Source: Thermoplasmata archaeon (lineage in GTDB: Archaea > Thermoplasmatota > Thermoplasmata > RBG-16-68-12 > EA-27). Taken from it: a stretch of 58,296 nucleotides of DNA. How positions within the stretch are numbered: position 1 is the first letter of the stretch; every line of letters begins with the position of its first letter. The position numbers and the translations under genes were made by a program. The DNA is taken from contig DATEUK010000007.1 of the NCBI GenBank assembly GCA_035283165.1, positions 1 to 58,296 on the forward strand, written 5' to 3'. Shown piece by piece: positions 24,203 to 53,310 of this stretch. The notes below the pieces were generated by a model. The model was not told the origin of the DNA and ran no database searches. It saw only the letters and a program-made list of their open reading frames with translations.

Positions 24203-25474
24203 TCACAGCGTCGCCTTGAGGAACATCTCCGGCTTCGCGGTCAGGGGTCGCGTCGCGTCGATCCCCATCTTGGCGGTGGTCTCGCCGGCGCTCGGGTCGA
24301 TCGACGAGCCCCGGACGCCCGTGAGGACCACGAGCCCACGGTCCGCCTGGAAGCGTGTGGCCACCGCCCACTCGACCTCGCGGTCATCCCAGACGTTCAC
24401 GTCCGCGTCGACGACGGTCACGTGCTTGAGGCTCGTGTGGGACGCGAACGCCGCCATGATCGCGTTCTTGCCGTCGCCGTCCGTGTGCTTCTCGATCGCG
24501 ACGACCGCATGGAGCCACGCGCAGCCGCCCTCCGTGAGCCGCACCCCCGCGACGCGCGGCACGACCTTCGAGACCCCGTCGCGGATCACGGGCTCGCGCG
24601 GCATGCCCATGAAGTTGAAGTGCTCGTCGCTCCCGCCGAGGATCATGTGGAAGATCGGGTCCTGGCGGTGATACACCCGTTCGAACTCCACGACGGGCTC
24701 CTGCCGCACGCGATCGTACGTGAGCACCGCGTCCACGAACGGTCCCTCATCGTGCGTTTCCCCGGTGAGGCGCCCCTCGAGCACGTACTCGGCGTCGGCG
24801 GGGACCGTGAGCCCGTTCTTCAGCTTCACGCACTCGACCGGCTGGCCGAGCGTCCGCCGCTTCAGGGAGGACGCGATGCGGGATTCATCGACGCCGTACT
24901 CCACGCTCGTGCCGCCGCCGATCAGCAGCCAAGGGTCGAGGCCGATGCAGACGGCCACCTTCAGCTCCTGACCCGCCGCCTGCGCCTGGCCGTGCATCGT
25001 GCGCAGATGGCGCGGCACGATCCGGGCGACGCCGCGCCGTGCGTCGAGGAGGAGGATCCGGTGGAAGCTCAGGTTCCGCTTCCCCTCCCATTCCGCGACC
25101 CACACGCCGGCCGTGATGTACCGGCCGGCGTCCTTCGGGTAGAACTTCGGGACGGGGGAGTCCCGGAGGTCGAAGTCCGTGCTCTCGTTCGCGGAGAAGT
25201 CCGCGTGGTCCACGAGGCGGACGTCCTCCGGGTGGCGCTGGGAGTCCCCCACGGCGTCGAGGAGGCCTTCCTCCGGGATCGTCATCGCGCGCGCGATCCG
25301 GGCCCGGCTGGCCCACAGGCCGCCGACGCCCTCATACCCGTCGAGGTCGCGGAAGTGGACCGGGGCGCGAGGGTTCGCGAGCAGATGGCGGGTCACCTCG
25401 AGTTCGCGGCTCACCGGTGCATCGATCGTGACCACGTCGTCCCGGAACGTCTCCAGCCATTCGCGAACCGCCAT
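24203..25474 (-). CDS. UbiD-family (prenyl-FMN dependent) decarboxylase
   Basis: ATG 25474 lies inside track ORF 24203..25888. It reads MAVREWLETFRDDVVTIDAPVSRELEVT..., with NLSFHRILLL, EGPFVD and VVDADVNVWDDREVEWAVATRFQ. 423 aa. Confidence 0.85.
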   Translation of the reverse strand: MAVREWLETFRDDVVTIDAPVSRELEVTRHLLANPRAPVHFRDLDGYEGVGGLWASRARIARAMTIPEEGLLDAVGDSQRHPEDVRLVDHADFSANESTDFDLRDSPVPKFYPKDAGRYITAGVWVAEWEGKRNLSFHRILLLDARRGVARIVPRHLRTMHGQAQAAGQELKVAVCIGLDPWLLIGGGTSVEYGVDESRIASSLKRRTLGQPVECVKLKNGLTVPADAEYVLEGRLTGETHDEGPFVDAVLTYDRVRQEPVVEFERVYHRQDPIFHMILGGSDEHFNFMGMPREPVIRDGVSKVVPRVAGVRLTEGGCAWLHAVVAIEKHTDGDGKNAIMAAFASHTSLKHVTVVDADVNVWDDREVEWAVATRFQADRGLVVLTGVRGSSIDPSAGETTAKMGIDATRPLTAKPEMFLKATL

Positions 25475-46242: not shown

Positions 46243-46776
46243 ATGCCCGTAATCTGCGTCACCGGCATGCCGGGCTGCGGGAAGGAGGAGCTGCTCAAGG
46301 TCGCGGCGGAGCGCGGGCTGGCGGTCGTCCGCATGGGCGACATCGTCCGCGAGGAGGCGCACCGGCGCGGCCTGAAGTTCAGCGACGAGAGCGTCGGGGG
46401 CATGGCCCACGAGGAGCGCGTGAAGCACGGCTTCGGAGTCTGGGCGGAGCGGACGATCCCGCGCATACGGGACGAAGTGACCGTGATCGACGGCATCCGC
46501 GGTCGCGAGGAACTCGACGTGTTCCGACGCGCCTTCGGGGAGCGCCTCATCGTCGTCGCGATCCACGCCTCCCCCGCGATCCGGCACGATCGGATCCGGA
46601 AACGAGCGCGGGGCGATGACGCCGTGTCCTGGGAGGAGTTCCTCCGCCGTGACGACCGCGAGCTCGGGTGGGGACTCGGCGAGGTGATCGCGACGGCGGA
46701 CCGCATGGTTGTGAACGAAGGGGGCATCGAGGAGATGCAGCAACGGTGCCGCGACCTCCTCGACGCAGTCGCGTGA
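46243..46776 (+). CDS. UPF0200-type P-loop nucleotide kinase (dephospho-CoA-kinase-like fold)
   Basis: MPVICVTGMPGCGKEE (Walker A), IDGIRGREE and RDDRELGWG. Confidence 0.75.
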   Translation: MPVICVTGMPGCGKEELLKVAAERGLAVVRMGDIVREEAHRRGLKFSDESVGGMAHEERVKHGFGVWAERTIPRIRDEVTVIDGIRGREELDVFRRAFGERLIVVAIHASPAIRHDRIRKRARGDDAVSWEEFLRRDDRELGWGLGEVIATADRMVVNEGGIEEMQQRCRDLLDAVA

Positions 46777-46781
46777 CTTCC

Positions 46782-47201
46782 ATGTTCCACTGGATCGAGG
46801 CCCGTGCGTTCTGCCATGCCACGGAGGACGAGGAGAAGGTCTTGGCGGCGCTCCACACCGTCCTCCCGGAGGGCGAAGTCCGGCGCGACGCCCTCGAGGG
46901 CCACTTCGGGAACCCTCTGGTCATCCTCGCCGCGCGGACGGAAACGTACCCGGGCACGAAGTCAGCCTGGCGGCGCATCGCAGAGGCCCTCGGCCCTAAG
47001 GAGATCCTCCAGGACGTCGAGGCGCGGATCGACGAGGATCTCGTGTATCATCTCCGCCTGGACAAGCAACGCGCCTGTCTCGGAGCGATTCATCGGGCCG
47101 GAGGCGCGGACGTGATCGATGTCAAAGCGAAGGTGGCGACATTCCCGAGGAAACGCGAGCTTGCGATCCAGGCGCTACGTGAGTCGGTCGGAGGGTCCTG
47201 A
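46782..47201 (+). CDS. UPF0201 / DUF54-like predicted RNA-binding protein
   Basis: MFHWIEARAFCHATEDEEKVLAALHTVLP...GNPLVILAAR...YHLRLDKQRA. It is the typical partner of UPF0200 genes in archaea. Confidence 0.65.
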   Translation: MFHWIEARAFCHATEDEEKVLAALHTVLPEGEVRRDALEGHFGNPLVILAARTETYPGTKSAWRRIAEALGPKEILQDVEARIDEDLVYHLRLDKQRACLGAIHRAGGADVIDVKAKVATFPRKRELAIQALRESVGGS

Positions 47202-48364
47202 TGCACCTGGAGGCGGACGAGGAGCGGATGGCCATCGAGGGCACGCCCGCGGAACGGCTCTCGATGAAGATCCTGAAGACCCTCGGGGACGTCTACGGGG
47301 CGGACCGCCTAATCCCCATCGCGAGCGCCCACGTTTCGGGCGCGTCCCCGCGAACACTCGGTGAGGCCGGAATCGAGTTCCTCGAGGGGTTCGCGACCTC
47401 TGCCAAGGTGCGCGTCCGCACGACCGTGAACCCGACGGGAATGGACCCGGATCGATGGCGCGAACTCGGCGTGCCAGAGGCGGAGATCCGGTCGCAGGAG
47501 CGAATCGTGGCGGCATACTCGAAGATGGGCATCGAGCCCACGTTCTCGTGCACGCCTTACCTGGTGGGGAACCGCCCCAGGTTCGGCGACCACCTCGCGT
47601 GGGCGGAATCCTCCGCCGTCGTGTTCGCGAACGCGGTGCTCGGGGCGCGGTCGAACCGGGAAGGCGGTCCCTCGGCGCTCGCAGCGGCGGTGATCGGTCG
47701 AACGCCGGACTATGGACTTCATCGGGACGAGGACCGGATGGCGACCCACGTCGTGGACGTGGACGTCCCGATGCGGGGGTATCGATGGTCCCTCCTCGGG
47801 CTCCATCTTGGTGCGGTCATCGGCGACGGGGTGCCCTACCTCCGCGGCGTCTCGGCGGCGGACTCGGATCTGAAGTGGTTCGGGGCGGCCCTCGCGGCCT
47901 CGGGCAACATCGGCATGTTCCACGTCGAGGGGACGACGCCCGAATGGCGGCAGGCGAATCCCCGGGGGTTGCCGAAGGTCTCCGTCACCGAGGCGGATCT
48001 GCTCGCGACGAAGGAGAGGCACACGTCGGGTGTCGAGCCAGACGCGATCGGCCTCGGGTCCCCGCAGCTGTCCGCCGACGAGCTACGGCACCTCGCAGAG
48101 CTGATCGAGCGTCACCGCCCGCGGCCGCGGGTGTACGCATTCACGAGCCGCGCCGCGCGGGCAGAGGCCGGCGACGCCGCCAAACGGATCGAGGCTCTCG
48201 GTCACGTCGTGCTCGTCGACACGTGTCTCGAGGTGGCGCCGATGGACCTGTGGGCGAAGACCACCGCCACGCCTTCGGGGAAGGGCGCCGTCTACCTGCC
48301 GACGTTGTGCGGGCAGAAGGTCGTACTCGACGATCTGGAGGAACTCCTCCGGAGGTTCGCATGA
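47201..48364 (+). CDS. Aconitase X catalytic (large) subunit, DUF521; candidate phosphomevalonate dehydratase large subunit
   Basis: MKILKTLGDVYGADRLIPIASAHVSG, FSCTPYL, WAESSAVVFANAVLGARSNREGG and MFHVEGTTPE. Its start overlaps the upstream stop (TGATG). Confidence 0.8.
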   Translation: MHLEADEERMAIEGTPAERLSMKILKTLGDVYGADRLIPIASAHVSGASPRTLGEAGIEFLEGFATSAKVRVRTTVNPTGMDPDRWRELGVPEAEIRSQERIVAAYSKMGIEPTFSCTPYLVGNRPRFGDHLAWAESSAVVFANAVLGARSNREGGPSALAAAVIGRTPDYGLHRDEDRMATHVVDVDVPMRGYRWSLLGLHLGAVIGDGVPYLRGVSAADSDLKWFGAALAASGNIGMFHVEGTTPEWRQANPRGLPKVSVTEADLLATKERHTSGVEPDAIGLGSPQLSADELRHLAELIERHRPRPRVYAFTSRAARAEAGDAAKRIEALGHVVLVDTCLEVAPMDLWAKTTATPSGKGAVYLPTLCGQKVVLDDLEELLRRFA

Positions 48365-49143
48365 GGCTCGTCGGACGAACCGTCGTGGCGGGTCTGGCGG
48401 AGGGCCCCGTCCTCGCCTCGGACCGACCGCTCTCTCTCCTTGGCGGCGTGGACAACGAGACGGGCGAGGTCCGCGACCCGGAGAGCCCGCTGCGTGGAGA
48501 GCGGCTCGGAGGCCGCGTCCTCGTCGTACCGCACGGGAAGGGGAGCACGGTCGGCTCCTACGTTCTGTACGCGCTCCGGAAGCGGAATGCAGCCCCACGC
48601 GCGATCCTCGTCTCCAAGGCGGACACGATCCTTGCGGTCGGTGCCGTCCTTGCGGAGGTCCCGATGGTGGACCGGATTCCCGTGGATGTCTTGCGTACGG
48701 GGGACCGGGTCGTCGTGGATGCGGCCGCCGCCATCGTCGACGCCCCCGACCTCGTGGAACGGGACGTGGTGACGTCCTTCCTGGAGCGGGAGGGTCGCAT
48801 CCTGGTCGTCCGGCGCAGCGAACAGGTCGGCTCCTTCCGGGGGAAGTGGTCCGGCGTCTCCGGGTTCCTCGAGGGCGTGGACGCGGAGGCCCACGCCCGT
48901 CGCGAGATCGAGGAGGAGACGGGGCTCACGGACGTACGACTCCTGGCGGCGGGCCCCGTGGTCCGGAGCCGAGGACCGGACAACACCGTGTACGCGATTC
49001 GACCGCATCGGTTCGCCTCCCGCGCGGGAGGCGTCCGGCTCGATTGGGAAAACGTCGAATACCGCTGGGTGGTGCCGGCGGAGCTCGCGGGCCTGGACGC
49101 GGTGCCGAAGCTCCGGGCCGCGTACGAGGCGACCCTAGGCTGA
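48361..49143 (+). CDS. Fusion of the aconitase X swivel (small) subunit, DUF126, with a C-terminal Nudix hydrolase domain
   Basis: N-terminal half: GLAEGPVLASDRPLSLLGGVDNETGEV...VVPHGKGSTVGSYVLYAL...AAPRAILV. C-terminal half has the Nudix box GFLEGVDAEAHARREIEEETGL. ATGA overlap with the upstream gene. Confidence 0.8.
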   Translation: MRLVGRTVVAGLAEGPVLASDRPLSLLGGVDNETGEVRDPESPLRGERLGGRVLVVPHGKGSTVGSYVLYALRKRNAAPRAILVSKADTILAVGAVLAEVPMVDRIPVDVLRTGDRVVVDAAAAIVDAPDLVERDVVTSFLEREGRILVVRRSEQVGSFRGKWSGVSGFLEGVDAEAHARREIEEETGLTDVRLLAAGPVVRSRGPDNTVYAIRPHRFASRAGGVRLDWENVEYRWVVPAELAGLDAVPKLRAAYEATLG

Positions 49144-52100
49144 CGGGACCGGCACGGTCACGACGCCGTCGACTTCCTTCTCGAGCAGGTTCAACTGATG
49201 CGCGTCGAGCGTCGCGGGGTTCACGGACAGCACCATGGTCGCCCCGTTGATCGCGACCTGGTCCCGCAACGCCTGCACGAGCCGGAGGACGGTCAGGAAG
49301 TTGTTGTTCGTGATGAGGTATTCGATCCCGTCGAGGAGGACGAGCCCCGCCTCTTTCACGATGAACTGCTCGAGCGCGAGGGACAGCTTCTCCAGGTCCT
49401 TCGGCCGCACGCTGTCGTCCTTGCCCACGTTGCTGAGCCACAGGATCGGGACGTCCGCCGGGATCCCAAACTTCTCGCGGACCTTGGCGGGGTACACGCG
49501 GGTGACGCAGAAGCCACGCCGTCCCTTCCGGAGCGCGTCCAGGAAGAGAGCGTACGACTGCTGGGGCTTCTCCTCCTTCACGAGATATGTGGACGACGCG
49601 CCCGGCTCCATCGCGGGTGCGGGGAGCGCCTCCTGGATCGGTGCTTGGACGCGGACCGCGACCGGAGTGGGCGCCATCGTGGGGGCCTCAGCGACGGGTT
49701 CCATGGCCCGTGGGGCCGGGGCGGCGGCGACCGGAACGGCCACGGCCGGCGTTTCGGGCGCAGGCTCCGGCTCGGGCTTCGCCGGCTTCTCCGCGCCGAA
49801 CCCGCAGTGGGGGCAGGCGTACGTCCCCTTGGCGATCGGCTTCCCGCACGCCGGGCACGGCAGGGTCCCCTCGGGGAGCTCCCCGCACCGCCAGCAGCGT
49901 GACTCCTCGGGCCTCCCCGGTGCGCCACACACCGCGCAGGCGGGGACCTTCGCGGCGGGTTCCCGCCCGAGGAATTCCCAGATGCGCCGGGCGTCCCCCT
50001 CCTCGATCCCCTGGATGTGGAGGATCTCGTCGCGGCTCGCGGCGCGGACGGCTGCGAGGGTCTTGTATCCCGCATCGAACAGCGCGATCGCCTTCTTCTC
50101 CGTGATGCCGGGGATCTCCGTGAAGGCGTCCAACGCCTCCCGCATGTGGAGGGGGGTGATCCCGACCAGCAGCGACTCCCCCTCCACATTCGGCCACTCC
50201 ACGATGTACTCCTCGTCGACGTCGCCCGTTCCGATCGTGAGCGTGCGGCTCCGGACTTCCCGCGCGATGTACGACCGCCAGGGCTCCAGGGGGGCGACCA
50301 GCCCTTCGGGGACCCGGATGATGGCCCGGATGTAGTCCTCCACGTCGAGATCGATGTCCTTCCGCATCTGCTGCACGCGCCGCACGACCTCCCGTGCCAT
50401 GCCCTCCGCGCGGAGTTCGGGCGTGATCCGGAGGTCGATGAACAGCTCCCCGTACGGCGTCTCCGCACGCACGATTCCCTCCGGCAGGCGGTGCTCGACC
50501 CGCACCATGTTCGGCAGGATCTTGATGATCTGTCCCTCGATCCCCATCTTGTACTCCCCGTGCTCCTGCAGCTCCCGTTGGACCTCCGAGGCCGGACGCA
50601 TCTCGAGGATCGTCGCGATCTTCGACCACCACGCCTTGTACGCCTTCCCGATTGCCTGCGGGTCCGGCGACAGCGCGAGTTCCATCTCCGCGTACGGGGA
50701 GTCCTCGGCGAGGATCTGCACTTCCTTCACGTTCGCCATGTCCCGGAAGATGTGCAGGAGCTGTCGGATGGCGTCCGCCGCGTCCGCTGGCGCCCCCTGG
50801 ATCGTCACGGACCGCACCGGCCACCGGAGCTTCAGGTTCTCCTTCTGGCGCACCTTCGCCACGACGTCCACGAGATCCCGGATCGTGTTCATCGACCTCT
50901 CGAGGCCCGCGTTCAGGAAGTCCTCTCGGGATCGGGGCCAGTCCGCCATGTGCACGGAGAGCATGCGGCCGTCGAGGTCCTGGTAGATCTCCTCCGCGAT
51001 GTGCGGACAGAACGGGGCGAGGAGCCTGGCGGTCGTGACCAACGCCTCGTACAGCACCCTGTACGCCGCCATCTTGCCCCGGTCCTCGCCCTCCGCCCAC
51101 GTCCGGTCCCGAACGATCTTCACGTACCATCGCGAGAGGTCCTCGACGACGAACTCCTCGAGCGCGCGCGTCGCCCGGTGCAGCTCGTACGCTTCGAGCA
51201 GGGCCGTCATCGTCTCCTTGATCCGCTCCACCCGGGACAGCAGCCACCGGTCCTCCGGCGTGAGGTGTTTCACGACCTCGTCGAGCCGGTGCGCGTCCGG
51301 GTCGAATCGGTCCATCGCCATATACGTCGTCGCGAACCGGAGGACGTTGTACAGGATCGTCAGCGTCCGGCCCGCGTTCTTCACGTCCTCCCAGGAGAAC
51401 GTGACGTCCTCCCACGGCGCGTTCGCCCGCAGCAGGTACAGACGGAGGGCGTCGACCCCGTGTTTGGCGATGACCTCGAACGGTTCGATGTAGTTTCCCA
51501 GGGACTTGTGCATCTGCCTCCCGTCCGGGCCGTTCACCCACCCGTGCATGAGGACGGACTCGAACGGGGATCGGTCGAACGCAGCCACACCCAAGGTGAG
51601 CTGGGCGTTGAACCACCCGCGTGTCTGGTCGGGCCCTTCGACGATCCAGTCGACCGGCCACCACCGCTTGAACAGGTCCTTCGTCCGCGGAAGGTTGAGC
51701 TGCGCCCACGACGCGACCCCGGAGTCGAACCAGACGTCGAGGACGTCGGGCACGCGGCGTTCCGTCCCGCCGCACTTCGGGCACCGGAACGTGACCGCGT
51801 CGATCCACGGCCGGTGCAGGTCCATGCCCTCGCGGTAGTTCTGCCCCGCCCGCAACTCCTCCGTGGAACCGACGACGCGCAGGTCCCCGCACTTCTCGCA
51901 CACCCAAATCGGGAGGGGCGTGCCCCAGTACCGTTGCCGGGAGATTGTCCAGTCACGCAGGTTCGTCGTCCACTCCATCTGCCGGGCGGAACCCGCCCAG
52001 TCCGGGACCCATCGGACTCGCCGGATCTCTTCGATCATCTTCGCCCGTAGGGGGTCCACGCGGAGGAACCACTGCTCCGTGACCCGGAAGATGACCGGCG

Positions 52101-53310
52101 TGTGGCACCGCCAGCAGTGGCCGTACCGGTGGACGACCTGCCCCTGGTGGAACAGGGCTCCGGCCGCCTTCAGGTCCTCGATGACCGATGCGCTCGCCTC
52201 CCGCACGTGGCGGCCCGCGTACGAACCCGCCTCCGCGGTGTACACGCCCCGCTCATCGACGGGGGAGAACGGGGGGAGTCCCTGGGCCTGTCCGAGCTCG
52301 AAGTCCTCGGGCCCGTGTCCCGGCGCCGTGTGCACGAGGCCCGTATGCTCGTTCGTCACGGTGGGCGAGGCGAGGACCTTGTGCGCGTTCGGTGCAATGG
52401 CCTGAGCATGGTACGGCACCTTGTCGGCGAGCGGGTGCTCGTAGGCCCATCCCACCATCTCCGATCCCACGAGGAGGTCCCCGATTCGACCCAGCACGTC
52501 CGCCTCGTCCAAGATGCGCGCGGCGGTCTCCTCCAGGACCCACACCGCCCCGTCGCCTAGCTCCACCTTCGCGTACTTGAACTCGGGGTGCACCGCCACG
52601 GCGAGGTTCGCGGGGAGTGTCCACGGGGTCGTCGTCCAGATCAGGAGGGACTCTCCCGGGCGGTCCTTCAAGGGGAACTTCACGTAGATCGAGGGGTCCG
52701 TCTCGTCGGAGTACTCGACCTCCGCCTCCGCGAGCGCGGTCTCGCACCGCGTACACCACTGGAGGGAGCGGACGTTCTTCGACAGGAGGCCTTTCTCGTG
52801 AGCGAGCTTGAGGGTCCACCATTCCGTCTCGATGAACGGGTTCACGATTGTAATGTACGGGGCCTCCCAGTCCATCCACACGCCGAGCTGCTGGAACTGC
52901 TCCGTCATCTTCCCGAGGAGGTCGAGCGAGAACTCGCGGCACGTGGTGACGAACTTCTCGATTCCGAGCTCCTCGATCTCGCGCTTGTTCGTGATCCCGA
53001 GGGTCTTCTCGACCTGCACCTCGATCGGCAGGCCGTGCATGTCATACCCGGGTTGATCGCGGACGTTGTACCCCTGCATCCGCCGCCAACGGACGATCGC
53101 GTCCTTGATCGTCTTGTTCAGGGTCGCACCCAGGTGGATCGATCCCGTCGTGTACGGGGGCCCGTCCACGAAGTAGAAATCCCTCCCCTTCTCGCGGAGC
53201 GTCCGCGTCTTCTCGTACGCCTTCGTCCTCCGCCAGAACTCCTGGACCCGCTTTTCCTGCTCGAGCGGAGCGTGGTCCTTCCTCGCCTGCTTTATCATCG
53301 CACTCCCCAC
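49135..53310 (-). CDS. ileS: Isoleucyl-tRNA synthetase fused in frame to a ~335-aa HhH / double Zn-ribbon / Pro-Ala linker / DUF835 extension
   Basis: PYTTGSIHLGA (HIGH), QMHKSLGN (KMSKS) and a complete IleRS up to about residue 1053. The frame then continues without a stop to residue 1391. Confidence 0.93.
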   Translation of the reverse strand: MGSAMIKQARKDHAPLEQEKRVQEFWRRTKAYEKTRTLREKGRDFYFVDGPPYTTGSIHLGATLNKTIKDAIVRWRRMQGYNVRDQPGYDMHGLPIEVQVEKTLGITNKREIEELGIEKFVTTCREFSLDLLGKMTEQFQQLGVWMDWEAPYITIVNPFIETEWWTLKLAHEKGLLSKNVRSLQWCTRCETALAEAEVEYSDETDPSIYVKFPLKDRPGESLLIWTTTPWTLPANLAVAVHPEFKYAKVELGDGAVWVLEETAARILDEADVLGRIGDLLVGSEMVGWAYEHPLADKVPYHAQAIAPNAHKVLASPTVTNEHTGLVHTAPGHGPEDFELGQAQGLPPFSPVDERGVYTAEAGSYAGRHVREASASVIEDLKAAGALFHQGQVVHRYGHCWRCHTPVIFRVTEQWFLRVDPLRAKMIEEIRRVRWVPDWAGSARQMEWTTNLRDWTISRQRYWGTPLPIWVCEKCGDLRVVGSTEELRAGQNYREGMDLHRPWIDAVTFRCPKCGGTERRVPDVLDVWFDSGVASWAQLNLPRTKDLFKRWWPVDWIVEGPDQTRGWFNAQLTLGVAAFDRSPFESVLMHGWVNGPDGRQMHKSLGNYIEPFEVIAKHGVDALRLYLLRANAPWEDVTFSWEDVKNAGRTLTILYNVLRFATTYMAMDRFDPDAHRLDEVVKHLTPEDRWLLSRVERIKETMTALLEAYELHRATRALEEFVVEDLSRWYVKIVRDRTWAEGEDRGKMAAYRVLYEALVTTARLLAPFCPHIAEEIYQDLDGRMLSVHMADWPRSREDFLNAGLERSMNTIRDLVDVVAKVRQKENLKLRWPVRSVTIQGAPADAADAIRQLLHIFRDMANVKEVQILAEDSPYAEMELALSPDPQAIGKAYKAWWSKIATILEMRPASEVQRELQEHGEYKMGIEGQIIKILPNMVRVEHRLPEGIVRAETPYGELFIDLRITPELRAEGMAREVVRRVQQMRKDIDLDVEDYIRAIIRVPEGLVAPLEPWRSYIAREVRSRTLTIGTGDVDEEYIVEWPNVEGESLLVGITPLHMREALDAFTEIPGITEKKAIALFDAGYKTLAAVRAASRDEILHIQGIEEGDARRIWEFLGREPAAKVPACAVCGAPGRPEESRCWRCGELPEGTLPCPACGKPIAKGTYACPHCGFGAEKPAKPEPEPAPETPAVAVPVAAAPAPRAMEPVAEAPTMAPTPVAVRVQAPIQEALPAPAMEPGASSTYLVKEEKPQQSYALFLDALRKGRRGFCVTRVYPAKVREKFGIPADVPILWLSNVGKDDSVRPKDLEKLSLALEQFIVKEAGLVLLDGIEYLITNNNFLTVLRLVQALRDQVAINGATMVLSVNPATLDAHQLNLLEKEVDGVVTVPVPSA

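Follow-up and report, generated by a model that had tools for sequence, protein, structure and literature searches.

A swivel–Nudix fusion in the phosphomevalonate dehydratase operon is common to the AcnX-bearing Thermoplasmata, including Methanomassiliicoccales

The window, by which we mean the whole stretch of 58,296 nucleotides analysed from a Thermoplasmata archaeon, contains a tightly packed operon of four genes, the last of which joins an AcnX swivel domain to a Nudix domain. The following features were found in this region:

46243..46776 (+): gene 1, encoding a 177-aa UPF0200-type P-loop nucleotide-kinase-like protein and ending in a TGA stop
46782..47201 (+): gene 2, encoding a 139-aa UPF0201 protein (PF01877 'RNA_binding', former DUF54)
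47201..48364 (+): gene 3, encoding the large, catalytic AcnX subunit (387 aa) of phosphomevalonate dehydratase (PMDh)
48361..48741 (+): N-terminal half of gene 4 (residues 1-127), the AcnX swivel domain or PMDh small subunit
48742..48765 (+): inter-domain linker APDLVERD (residues 128-135), short and conserved in an alignment of 132 fusion proteins
48763..49143 (+): C-terminal half of gene 4 (residues 135-260), a minimal MutT/NudI-like Nudix hydrolase domain
49135..53310 (-): isoleucyl-tRNA synthetase (IleRS) with a C-terminal HhH/DUF835 extension, convergent to gene 4

Genes 1 and 2 are separated by 5 nt (CTTCC), the TGA stop of gene 2 overlaps the ATG of gene 3 (TGATG), and the TGA stop of gene 3 overlaps the ATG of gene 4 (ATGA). 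Gene 4 (48361-49143, + strand) is a single frame of 260 codons with zero internal stops, and its own stop overlaps that of the IleRS gene by 9 nt. The product of gene 1 has the Walker A motif GMPGCGKE and matched Pfam AAA_17 (4.5e-14) and AAA_18 (1.9e-11), with weak NCBIfam matches, and that of gene 2 matched PF01877 (2.7e-29) and PRK14555 of NCBIfam (1.6e-30). Residues 1-383 of the gene 3 product covered the AcnX profile PF04412 at full length (7.8e-126). In the gene 4 product, in which KGSTVGSY forms residues 60-67, PF01989 (AcnX_swivel) was found at residues 24-103 with 4.2e-31 and 107 bits (cut-off 27), covering all 80 positions of the profile. PF00293 (NUDIX) was found at residues 140-246, above its gathering score (1e-11; 45.4 bits against 21.1). 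The initial annotation of this DNA had thus read the coordinates, the gap, both overlaps and the domains correctly, and by its sequence the gene 4 product is a genuine bifunctional polypeptide. The coupling to the UPF0200 and UPF0201 genes is present here as well, but it is limited to close relatives of this lineage: gene 1 also lies upstream of the fusion in these relatives and not in other fusion-bearing families. The convergent IleRS neighbour is kept in many fusion-bearing genomes (Pfam tRNA-synt_1, Anticodon_1, HHH_5 and DUF835 in the orthologous neighbours), and most fusion loci have large convergent ORFs downstream.

A stop codon or frameshift at the junction would have undone the fusion. 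The frame is uninterrupted, and six near-identical versions of the 260-aa fusion were found in separate ENA/JGI assemblies. Furthermore, 119 of the 120 best homologues listed combine PF01989 with PF00293, at identities down to 48%, and more than 115 database proteins carry the fusion, a count that is a lower bound. Separate assemblies of origin and more than 115 orthologous fusions exclude an assembly artefact at the junction. For this contig, the NCBI record contains only a 124-aa Nudix ORF that starts at an internal GTG, so that the deposited annotation conceals the fusion. Within the class, full-length matches came from families f2, f3 and f6-f11; none was found in f5. Almost all AcnX-bearing families of the class carry the fusion, Methanomassiliicoccales included, and the carriers that bear a name are Methanomassiliicoccales, Methanomassiliicoccus sp., Methanomethylophilaceae, Ca. 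Saliniplasma and Thermoplasmata MAGs. In archaea that do not belong to the class, matches were confined to residues 1-127, and in Thermococcus, Methanosarcinales and others the small subunit is unfused. These results show that the AcnX swivel–Nudix fusion is real and common to the whole group, including the Methanomassiliicoccales. We found no publication mentioning it in the searchable literature. In this sense it is undescribed, as had been supposed, although it is class-wide and already machine-annotated in public databases.

The dehydratase part could be assigned with more detail. The small subunit matched chain B of the T. kodakarensis enzyme (TkPMDh, 7cnr_B) with 2.1e-40 and 55% identity, compared to 2.2e-15 for 7cnp, and an AlphaFold2 (AF2) model of the swivel domain superposed on 7cnr_B with an rmsd of 0.7 A and a TM score of 0.95. 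For the large subunit, TkPMDh (7cnr_A) was likewise the best PDB match (4.9e-92, against 5e-48 for cis-3-hydroxy-L-proline (C3LHyp) dehydratase). The NCBIfam model for cis-3-hydroxy-L-proline dehydratase (AcnX type I/IIa, NF051439) gave 86 bits for the small and 243 bits for the large subunit, with a cut-off of 700, and this assignment was rejected. By sequence, then, the AcnX pair is of the archaeal PMDh type and closest to T. kodakarensis TK1249/TK1248, in line with the initial annotation, which had preferred PMDh to a hydroxyproline dehydratase. At all loci from which both subunit genes were recovered, 14 of the 20 fusion loci examined, the two lie side by side.

The genome was also checked for the other enzymes of the route. 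Mevalonate kinase (MVK; TIGR00549, 196 bits, cut-off 163), isopentenyl phosphate (IP) kinase (NF040647, 228 bits, cut-off 120) and UbiX (TIGR00421, 245 bits, cut-off 109), which the earlier reading had proposed to look for, were all found. In addition, the type 2 isomerase IDI-2 is present (TIGR02151, 370 bits, cut-off 281), encoded next to the IP kinase gene. The window itself contains the single PF01977 match of the genome:

24203..25474 (-): UbiD-family decarboxylase, 423 aa (PF01977 5.5e-52; TIGR00148 328 bits, cut-off 245)

This UbiD is a candidate for the anhydromevalonate phosphate decarboxylase, the next enzyme of the pathway, and UbiD-AcnXL-AcnXS clusters are seen in other classes. 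Beyond MVK and pantoate kinase, no other GHMP-family decarboxylase or kinase was found in the genome, which is 77.6% complete. Judged by these profile matches, MVK, PMDh, UbiD/UbiX, IP kinase and IDI-2 make up the AcnX mevalonate route. Residues 1-127 of the gene 4 product would pair 1:1 with the large subunit encoded directly upstream and, as PMDh, convert mevalonate 5-phosphate to trans-anhydromevalonate 5-phosphate, and the steps would run in the order MVK, PMDh, UbiD/UbiX decarboxylase, IP kinase and IDI-2.

PMDh, the signature enzyme of the archaeal mevalonate pathway, has to our knowledge been studied so far only in unfused forms, those of Aeropyrum and Thermococcus. TkPMDh (TK1249/TK1248, PDB 7CNR/7CNS) and the A. 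pernix enzyme (ApPMDh, APE_2087.1/APE_2089) belong to AcnX type IIb. Like them, the enzyme described here is encoded by adjacent genes for a catalytic subunit of ~390 aa and a swivel subunit, with matching pathway genes in the genome. Unlike them, its small subunit carries a C-terminal Nudix domain of 125 residues, and no solved structure with such a swivel–Nudix architecture was found. The C3LHyp dehydratase of A. tumefaciens (AcnX type I, PDB 7CNP/7CNQ) is of the same superfamily and has homologous swivel and catalytic domains; in contrast to the two-gene enzyme of the window, it is a single chain with a [2Fe-2S] cluster. The sequences show that a whole class, including gut and rumen methanogens (Methanomassiliicoccales), makes the small subunit of this enzyme fused, rigidly according to the model, to an active-looking Nudix domain.

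The motif on which this activity would depend lies at the following position:

48862..48927 (+): Nudix box GFLEGVDAEAHARREIEEETGL, residues 168-189, read from the sequence

The box had been called a textbook one. This holds for its second half, REIEEETGL, which is perfect and leaves the catalytic REx2EE part intact; the first half, however, lacks one residue, with G-x5-D-x6-R for the canonical G-x5-E-x7-R. The canonical spacing is seen in most family members, and the shortened GX5E loop is common to the gene 4 product and its closest relative. The alignment of the Nudix family retains the box and four further motifs (KRSxxVxTxxGxWxxVSG, HPFxF, DWEHxExxW and TVPxL), and the linker has the consensus ..LPDV.E. 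in the alignment of 132 fusion proteins. The AF2 model of the Nudix domain reached a pLDDT of 96.5 and a pTM of 0.90. For the two domains together these values were 96.3 and 0.88, with a linker pLDDT of ~98, and the model predicts that the Nudix domain is rigidly docked on the swivel domain through a confidently predicted interface. Such an interface, together with the shortened loop, might be expected if the Nudix domain were non-catalytic and served the dehydratase heterodimer as a structural brace or ligand sensor. We consider this highly improbable, because none of E182, E185 and E186 varies among 91 fusion proteins, the metal-binding Glu and the other motifs show little or no variation in 91-132 of them, and the motifs of the fused domain are identical to those of free-standing enzymes. 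The sequence therefore points to a Nudix domain that is probably catalytically active.

With this domain, a Foldseek search of the PDB yielded 564 matches (E <= 0.001); the 50 that were listed are without exception Nudix folds (TM up to 0.85). Its top matches were NudI (rank 1-3), BdRppH, 3grn and MutT2 (TM 0.7-0.85); in the profile search, 3grn (1.8e-14) and NudI (1.4e-13) were found. The nearest characterised relatives are nucleotide hydrolases, namely NudI, MutT2, NudG, RppH and Ap4A hydrolase. NudI of E. coli, Salmonella and Klebsiella (PDB 3N77, 3OGA, 6DT3) shares the compact fold of ~130 residues and the box, and the fold is also shared by other minimal MutT-type relatives (M. smegmatis MutT2, NudG/ORF135, BdRppH and Ap4A hydrolases). 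In contrast to all of these, the domain has its own motif set and is just 22-27% identical, and the NCBIfam equivalog cut-offs were all missed by far. NudI was the NCBIfam match for 42 of 44 Nudix family members, but NF012016 gave 23.1 bits for the domain against a cut-off of 95, and the best family member reached only E 1.9e-11. In sequence terms the domain resembles NudI while standing outside that equivalog. The best profile match and highest TM score (0.85, rmsd 2.0 A) belong to the 'MutT related protein' of Methanosarcina mazei (PDB 3GRN), which shares the LLRRSENSRTNAGKW and EHxEYxW features with the domain. It differs in being free-standing, in its low identity (24%) and in having PGG where this family has VSG, and since it is an uncharacterised structural genomics target it gives no functional lead. 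A type 1 isopentenyl diphosphate isomerase was considered and rejected: matches to NF002995 were weak, with a best E of 7e-7, and came from 16 of the 44 family members, E. coli IDI ranked ~40th in Foldseek with 20% identity, the hydrolase signature REx2EE is intact, and the genome has IDI-2.

Furthermore, we followed the domain through 401 Thermoplasmatota genomes by profile search. The scores were bimodal, with orthologues at E <= 1e-22. Free-standing orthologues of 35-48% identity occur in sister classes (families f12, f14, f20, f23, f25, f28, f30-f32, f34, f43, f44 and f46), usually on contigs other than that of AcnX; in a genome that consists of a single contig, 234 kb separate the Nudix gene from AcnXS. 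Their conserved neighbours are purQ in f23 and a PINA-like ATPase gene in f12 and f44. Two genomes, G018 and G038 (96-98% complete), have the Nudix orthologue and UbiD and lack AcnX, and the profile search found no orthologue in the AcnX-bearing families f4, f13, f21, f22, f24, f26, f29 and f35. On this distribution of sequences, the Nudix family is independent of the mevalonate pathway. Whichever substrate it acts on, the ~135-aa orthologous family is widespread, uncharacterised and defined by recognisable motifs.

The initial annotation had suggested that the fused domain could act as a built-in pathway valve. The substrate of such a valve would be IPP, DMAPP, mevalonate diphosphate or a CoA or nucleotide cofactor, its hydrolysis would throttle or vent the flux of isoprenoids, and the domain would oppose the IP kinase in a manner analogous to the plant NUDX1/3-IPK pair. 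The domain is indeed fused to a pathway enzyme in a genome with an IP kinase, Nudix enzymes that hydrolyse IPP and DMAPP offer a general precedent, and AtNUDX1 and geranyl diphosphate hydrolases are among the weaker profile and fold matches. We nevertheless could not uphold the valve. The orthologues are free-standing, independent of AcnX and placed in nucleotide contexts, the nearest relatives act on nucleotides, the domain has no regulatory feature, and tying a futile-cycle enzyme constitutively and 1:1 to a biosynthetic one would waste ATP. Both the venting of flux and the opposition to IP kinase are, in our estimate, very unlikely.

Instead, we lean, with little more than even confidence, towards an active MutT/NudI-like hydrolase that was fused after its gene had come to lie next to the small subunit gene, kept its own function and catalyses no mevalonate step. 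Residues 135-260 would then be a catalytically competent Nudix pyrophosphohydrolase held to the swivel by the 8-residue linker. Its ancestor would be a free-standing enzyme of ~135 aa that survives as such in other Thermoplasmatota, and the fusion would have arisen in an ancestor shared by all AcnX-bearing Thermoplasmata (Methanomassiliicoccales together with uncultured groups such as the RBG-16-68-12 group). The two genes were most likely neighbours before they were fused, and the order in family f32 (AcnXL, AcnXS, one gene, Nudix, MTAP-like) may represent this adjacency before fusion; in a tree of weak support, the f32 Nudix clusters with the domains of the fusions. The domain's own job would most probably be hydrolysis of the small nucleoside di-/triphosphate type, that is, housecleaning. 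Both this substrate class and the status of the domain as a 'passenger' are inferred. Against this reading, a class-long fusion, a short conserved linker and a fixed predicted interface are also expected under functional coupling, and the f32 Nudix, at most one gene from AcnXS outside the fusion clade, could reflect selection for linkage. Moreover, gene neighbourhoods speak only indirectly for a nucleotide role and vary among lineages, and the gene 4 product has the one-residue deletion in its GX5E loop.

Distant free-standing homologues (45-48% identity) suggested another substrate. They lie in operons with either AMP/thymidine phosphorylase, PRPP synthase, the Nudix gene and an IF-2B-family isomerase gene, or RNR, Nudix and IF-2B, and the IF-2B-family neighbours are ribose-1,5-bisphosphate-isomerase-like. 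The Nudix family might thus act on ribose-phosphates (PRPP to ribose 1,5-bisphosphate (R15P), or ADP-ribose to AMP and ribose 5-phosphate) and have been fused by an accident of location. The position between PRPP synthase and IF-2B genes with the phosphorylase upstream (L046, L047), that between RNR and IF-2B (L043) and the MTAP-like next gene in f32 speak for this, as does a Nudix-catalysed step from PRPP to R15P that has been proposed (10.1101/2019.12.22.886556). However, no RuBisCO, AMP phosphorylase or clear R15P isomerase was found in the genome (77.6% complete), the IF-2B neighbours scored 153 and 146 bits against an R15P-isomerase cut-off of 314, and the proximity of the window's domain to those homologues comes from a domain tree of poor resolution. 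We regard this possibility as doubtful at best.

A link to the next step of the pathway was considered as well. In PMC12359138, E. coli NudB, NudF, NudI and NudJ are described, citing Wang et al. 2018, as converting DMAPP to DMAP for UbiX and the prenylated flavin prFMN, and NudI is reported to hydrolyse DMAPP in addition to pyrimidine dNTPs. Because NudI is reported for this reaction, likeness to nucleotide hydrolases is compatible with a prenyl-diphosphate substrate; likewise, since G018 and G038 still carry UbiD, the phyletic data are compatible with a prFMN-related role. The Nudix domain could then be a dedicated C5 prenyl-diphosphate phosphatase on PMDh that turns DMAPP, with which the pathway ends, into DMAP, the prenyl donor of UbiX, and so primes the prFMN of the UbiD decarboxylase acting next. 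Besides the E. coli precedent, we note that NudI is the best characterised match by profile, Foldseek and NCBIfam, that the sole UbiD gene lies within the window and UbiX in the genome, that the fusion is class-wide with a rigid predicted interface, and that Nudix and AcnXS are linked in f32 and Nudix-bearing genomes without AcnX keep UbiD. On the other side, the orthologue is missing from the AcnX- and UbiD-bearing genomes of the eight families listed above, Thermococcus, Methanosarcinales and others manage with an unfused small subunit, free-standing orthologues adjoin genes for purQ, the PINA-like ATPase, PRPP synthase or RNR and not ubiX, ubiD or mevalonate genes, and the NudI match of 23 bits is far from the equivalog cut-off of 95. 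We therefore judge DMAP supply by a dedicated phosphatase to be unlikely, at perhaps one chance in a handful.

The two outcomes would matter in different ways. If the domain does provide DMAP, it would be the first physiological DMAP source in archaea and a self-priming loop hard-wired into the mevalonate pathway of Thermoplasmata, and the free-standing orthologues of sister classes would work likewise in trans. Should the domain act on DMAPP or IPP, this would answer where archaea obtain DMAP for prFMN. If nucleotide housecleaning is correct, the fusion would be a clean natural case of a stable 'passenger' fusion and a caution against inferring function from Rosetta-stone fusions.

Finally, the large subunit differs from other archaeal PMDh at a presumed cluster-ligand position:

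48050..48073 (+): GLGSPQLS motif of the large subunit, with Ser287 where other archaeal PMDh carry the Cys of GCPHLS

The [4Fe-4S] ligands of the ApPMDh large subunit are C122, C297 and C356 (PMC10040528). Two of the three ligand Cys are present here (C116 and C342) and the middle one is Ser287, which from the spacing and the alignment with TkPMDh appears to be equivalent to ApPMDh Cys297. Among the closest homologues, 120 of 121 have S, T or A at this position, and GCPHLS is found in 19 of 19 Methanomassiliicoccales-type homologues. In contrast to TkPMDh and ApPMDh with their GCPH, this lineage thus combines Ser, Thr or Ala with an extra Cys retained in TLCGQK, and this additional conserved Cys370 might substitute for the lost ligand. 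The replacement could bear on how AcnX enzymes hold their cluster, as a whole dehydratase lineage has exchanged one of three mutagenesis-supported Fe-S ligand Cys for Ser, Thr or Ala.

We compared the four-gene layout of the region proposed in the initial annotation with Pfam searches, and it was borne out exactly, in its coordinates, in the 5-nt gap between genes 1 and 2, and in the overlaps of the gene 2 stop with the gene 3 start (TGATG) and of the gene 3 stop with the gene 4 start (ATGA). The genes and their Pfam assignments are:

46243-46776, gene 1, P-loop AAA_17/18 protein, UPF0200
46782-47201, gene 2, PF01877 (UPF0201)
47201-48364, gene 3, AcnX large subunit (7.8e-126)
48361-49143, + strand, gene 4, 260 aa, AcnX_swivel at residues 24-103 (4.2e-31) and NUDIX at residues 140-246 (1e-11)

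Both domains of gene 4 scored above their Pfam gathering scores. The initial annotation had considered an undetected stop or frameshift at the junction. We found a stop-free frame throughout gene 4, and an assembly or frameshift artefact was ruled out by six near-identical 260-aa versions (one identical and five near-identical variants) from separate ENA/JGI assemblies and by more than 115 orthologous fusions. Furthermore, both domains were present in 119 of the 120 best database homologues. The NCBI record for the contig contains only a 124-aa Nudix ORF (P0132; 48769-49143) that starts at an internal GTG (Val137), so the deposited annotation splits off the Nudix half and masks the fusion. The 260-aa product is found in the JGI and ENA gene calls, and public databases carry machine annotations of the architecture, such as JGI's 'predicted aconitase with swiveling domain/8-oxo-dGTP pyrophosphatase MutT'. 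Literature searches for Nudix together with any of AcnX, aconitase X, DUF126 and phosphomevalonate dehydratase (PMDh) returned nothing relevant, and we found no paper that mentions the fusion. The UPF0200 and UPF0201 genes lie upstream in close relatives only and are missing from 20 other fusion loci, which argues against a functional link with the fusion.

The N-terminal half of the fusion belongs to the PMDh small-subunit family, subject to a caveat regarding the cluster ligands of its partner subunit. It matched Thermococcus kodakarensis TK1248 (7cnr_B) at 2.1e-40 with 55% identity, compared to 2.2e-15 for the bacterial cis-3-hydroxy-L-proline dehydratase, and the large subunit matched TK1249 at 4.9e-92, compared to 5e-48 for the bacterial enzyme. 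The pair also fell far below the NCBIfam hydroxyproline dehydratase model, and together with the PDB matches this ruled out a hydroxyproline dehydratase. The AlphaFold2 model of the whole fusion protein superposes on 7cnr_B with an rmsd of 0.7 Å. The 2.0-Mb Thermoplasmatota MAG to which the window belongs (77.6% complete) encodes the mevalonate kinase, IP kinase and UbiX to which the initial annotation had looked for its pathway reading, and in addition IDI-2 and a single UbiD, located inside the window:

24203-25474, - strand, UbiD

No GHMP-family enzymes besides mevalonate kinase and pantoate kinase were found in this incomplete genome. This gene set is that of the AcnX ('archaeal') mevalonate pathway described for Aeropyrum pernix (PMC10040528). 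In other classes of the phylum, genome coordinates place the genes for UbiD and the large and small AcnX subunits side by side, which fits the PMDh-pathway assignment. The genes for IP kinase and the type-2 IPP isomerase are adjacent on the same strand of another contig of the window's genome (C113:2360-4152) and form a second small mevalonate-pathway cluster, apart from the AcnX operon.

The caveat concerns the following motif in the large subunit:

48050-48073, GLGSPQLS, residues 284-291, in which Ser287 replaces the Cys of GCPHLS

This Cys is present in the T. kodakarensis enzyme (TkPMDh) and in 19 Methanomassiliicoccales-type homologues. Judged from spacing, the position of Ser287 corresponds to Cys297 of the A. 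pernix enzyme, one of three [4Fe-4S] ligands supported by mutagenesis (PMC10040528). Among the 121 closest homologues (55-100% identity), the position was occupied by Ser in 106, Thr in 10, Ala in four and Cys in one. Cys116, Cys342 and an extra cysteine, Cys370, were kept in all of the first 45 of these homologues, the last within a [TSMV]LC.Q[KRN] motif that mostly reads TLCGQK. The Methanomassiliicoccales-type enzymes carry both the GCPH Cys and the Cys370 equivalent, whereas TkPMDh has the former and lacks the latter. The Ser/Thr/Ala replacement, the retained Cys370 and the enzymes with both cysteines suggest that a cluster ligand has moved, and such a relocation may extend to a whole lineage of AcnX large subunits.

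The C-terminal half belongs to the Nudix superfamily and is NudI/MutT-like, outside every characterised equivalog: no NCBIfam equivalog threshold was reached. The Nudix box (residues 168-189), previously called textbook, has a perfect REIEEETGL, but the GX5E loop lacks one residue, unlike in most relatives, where the spacing is canonical. An alignment of 132 fusion proteins and a second of 44 domains, both fused and free-standing, revealed a coherent family with the consensus VVTCxL..GKILILKRS.KV.TYKG.W.GVSGY.E..E.P..TA.KEI.EETGL ... W.VHPFLF ... IDWEH.EY.WI ... TVP.L. As the metal-binding glutamates are invariant, the domain should be catalytically active. The isolated domain was modelled with a pLDDT of 96.5 and the whole fusion with a pLDDT of 96.3 and a pTM of 0.88. 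The 8-residue linker was confidently placed, and the swivel and Nudix domains are therefore predicted to be rigidly docked. We found no PDB entries spanning both domains. The closest structure to the Nudix domain was the compact MutT-type protein 3GRN of M. mazei, which has no assigned function (TM 0.85), followed by the likewise compact NudI, BdRppH, MutT2, NudG and Ap4A hydrolases (22-27% identity). A type 1 IPP isomerase was ruled out by the intact hydrolase box, the weakness of the IDI matches and the presence of IDI-2 beside the IP kinase gene.

To map the spread of the fusion, we surveyed 401 genomes of the phylum, counting matches to query residues about 1-255 as full-length. Such matches were found in families f2, f3 and f6-f11, all from the window's own class. 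The small subunit is unfused in family f4 and about 130 aa long in other classes, and the search of the 401 genomes detected no AcnX in family f5. Named carriers include Methanomassiliicoccales, Methanomassiliicoccus sp., Methanomassiliicoccaceae, Methanomethylophilaceae, Ca. Saliniplasma and many Thermoplasmata MAGs, while residues 1-127 alone were matched in Thermococcus, Methanosarcinales, Thorarchaeota and others. The large-subunit gene lies directly 5′ of the fusion in 14 of the 20 loci examined, these 14 being the loci where the ORF scan recovered both genes. On the 3′ side of these 20 loci a large convergent ORF encoding IleRS is common. In the window it is:

49135-53310, - strand, IleRS, 1391 aa, with a C-terminal HhH/DUF835 extension and a 9-nt stop-stop overlap with the fusion gene

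Both this neighbour and the overlap recur in relatives, indicating that much of the class has kept the AcnX-IleRS arrangement.

When the 401 genomes were searched with a Nudix profile, the scores were bimodal, with orthologues at E <= 1e-22 and paralogues at E >= 1e-18. In the window's class the orthologues are part of the fusion; at least 13 other families have them as free-standing genes, usually placed on another contig than the small-subunit gene (234 kb apart in a one-contig genome). The conserved neighbours of these free-standing genes are purQ, immediately 5′ in family f23, and a PINA-like ATPase gene, 5′ in f12 and f44, with purP 3′ in one case. The surroundings of a Methanofastidiosia homologue (P0131) were uninformative. 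The one exception, with a Nudix gene close to the AcnX pair, is family f32, where the order is AcnX large subunit, small subunit, one unrelated gene, Nudix and an MTAP-like gene; its Nudix domain clusters with the fused ones in a tree of weak support, and the arrangement looks like a pre-fusion or post-fission state. This tree of the 132-residue domain, aimed at a single fusion origin, was poorly resolved, with 13 of 15 fused domains on one side of a split (support 0.72) and the window's own domain on a long branch among metagenomic free-standing homologues. The distribution of the orthologues, their gene contexts and the f32 order together indicate that the Nudix domain represents an independent enzyme family, which would have been fused to the small subunit after becoming its neighbour.

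Among the AcnX-positive families, many have no copy of the orthologue, and two nearly complete genomes with UbiD but no AcnX large subunit (G018 and G038) do have one; its co-occurrence with AcnX or UbiD is thus not discriminating. The most interesting rival role, which we consider rather unlikely, is that the domain makes DMAP from DMAPP for UbiX and prFMN. This proposal survives on the retention of UbiD in AcnX-negative, Nudix-positive genomes and on a passage in PMC12359138 (citing Wang et al. 2018) that lists NudI among the Nudix enzymes of E. coli that reportedly perform this conversion.

Distant free-standing homologues (45-48% identity) occur in two types of operon, one with AMP/thymidine phosphorylase, PRPP synthase, Nudix and an IF-2B-family isomerase, the other with RNR, Nudix and IF-2B. 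These compact operons, of the first type at the homologue loci L046/L047 (JGI metagenome contigs) and of the second at L043/L044 (47-48% identity), look like a pentose-bisphosphate/nucleotide-salvage cluster that includes a Nudix step. Some gene neighbourhoods and a published proposal (10.1101/2019.12.22.886556) suggest PRPP or ADP-ribose as a substrate of the family, a role of low probability given that downstream enzymes are missing in the window's genome: for a route from PRPP to ribose-1,5-bisphosphate, neither RuBisCO, AMP phosphorylase nor a convincing R15P isomerase was found there.

Some of the matches in family f3 are limited to fusion residues ~61-260 or ~95-260, within long open frames of 308-671 aa:

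G025:C8:84889-85374, partial match
G176:C38:1071-1568, partial match
G398:C14:12269-12760, partial match
G206:C21:3645-4235, partial match, in a genome that also has a full-length fusion

These may represent a second Nudix-containing architecture or a long-ORF artefact in high-GC DNA. In ten genomes of families f33, f15 and f30 (G037, G081, G225, G189, G005, G017, G177, G185, G210 and G240), the sole large-subunit homologue is divergent (33-35% identity) and lies within a frame of 546-633 aa, which suggests a single-chain AcnX (large plus small subunit) in lineages without the Nudix orthologue.
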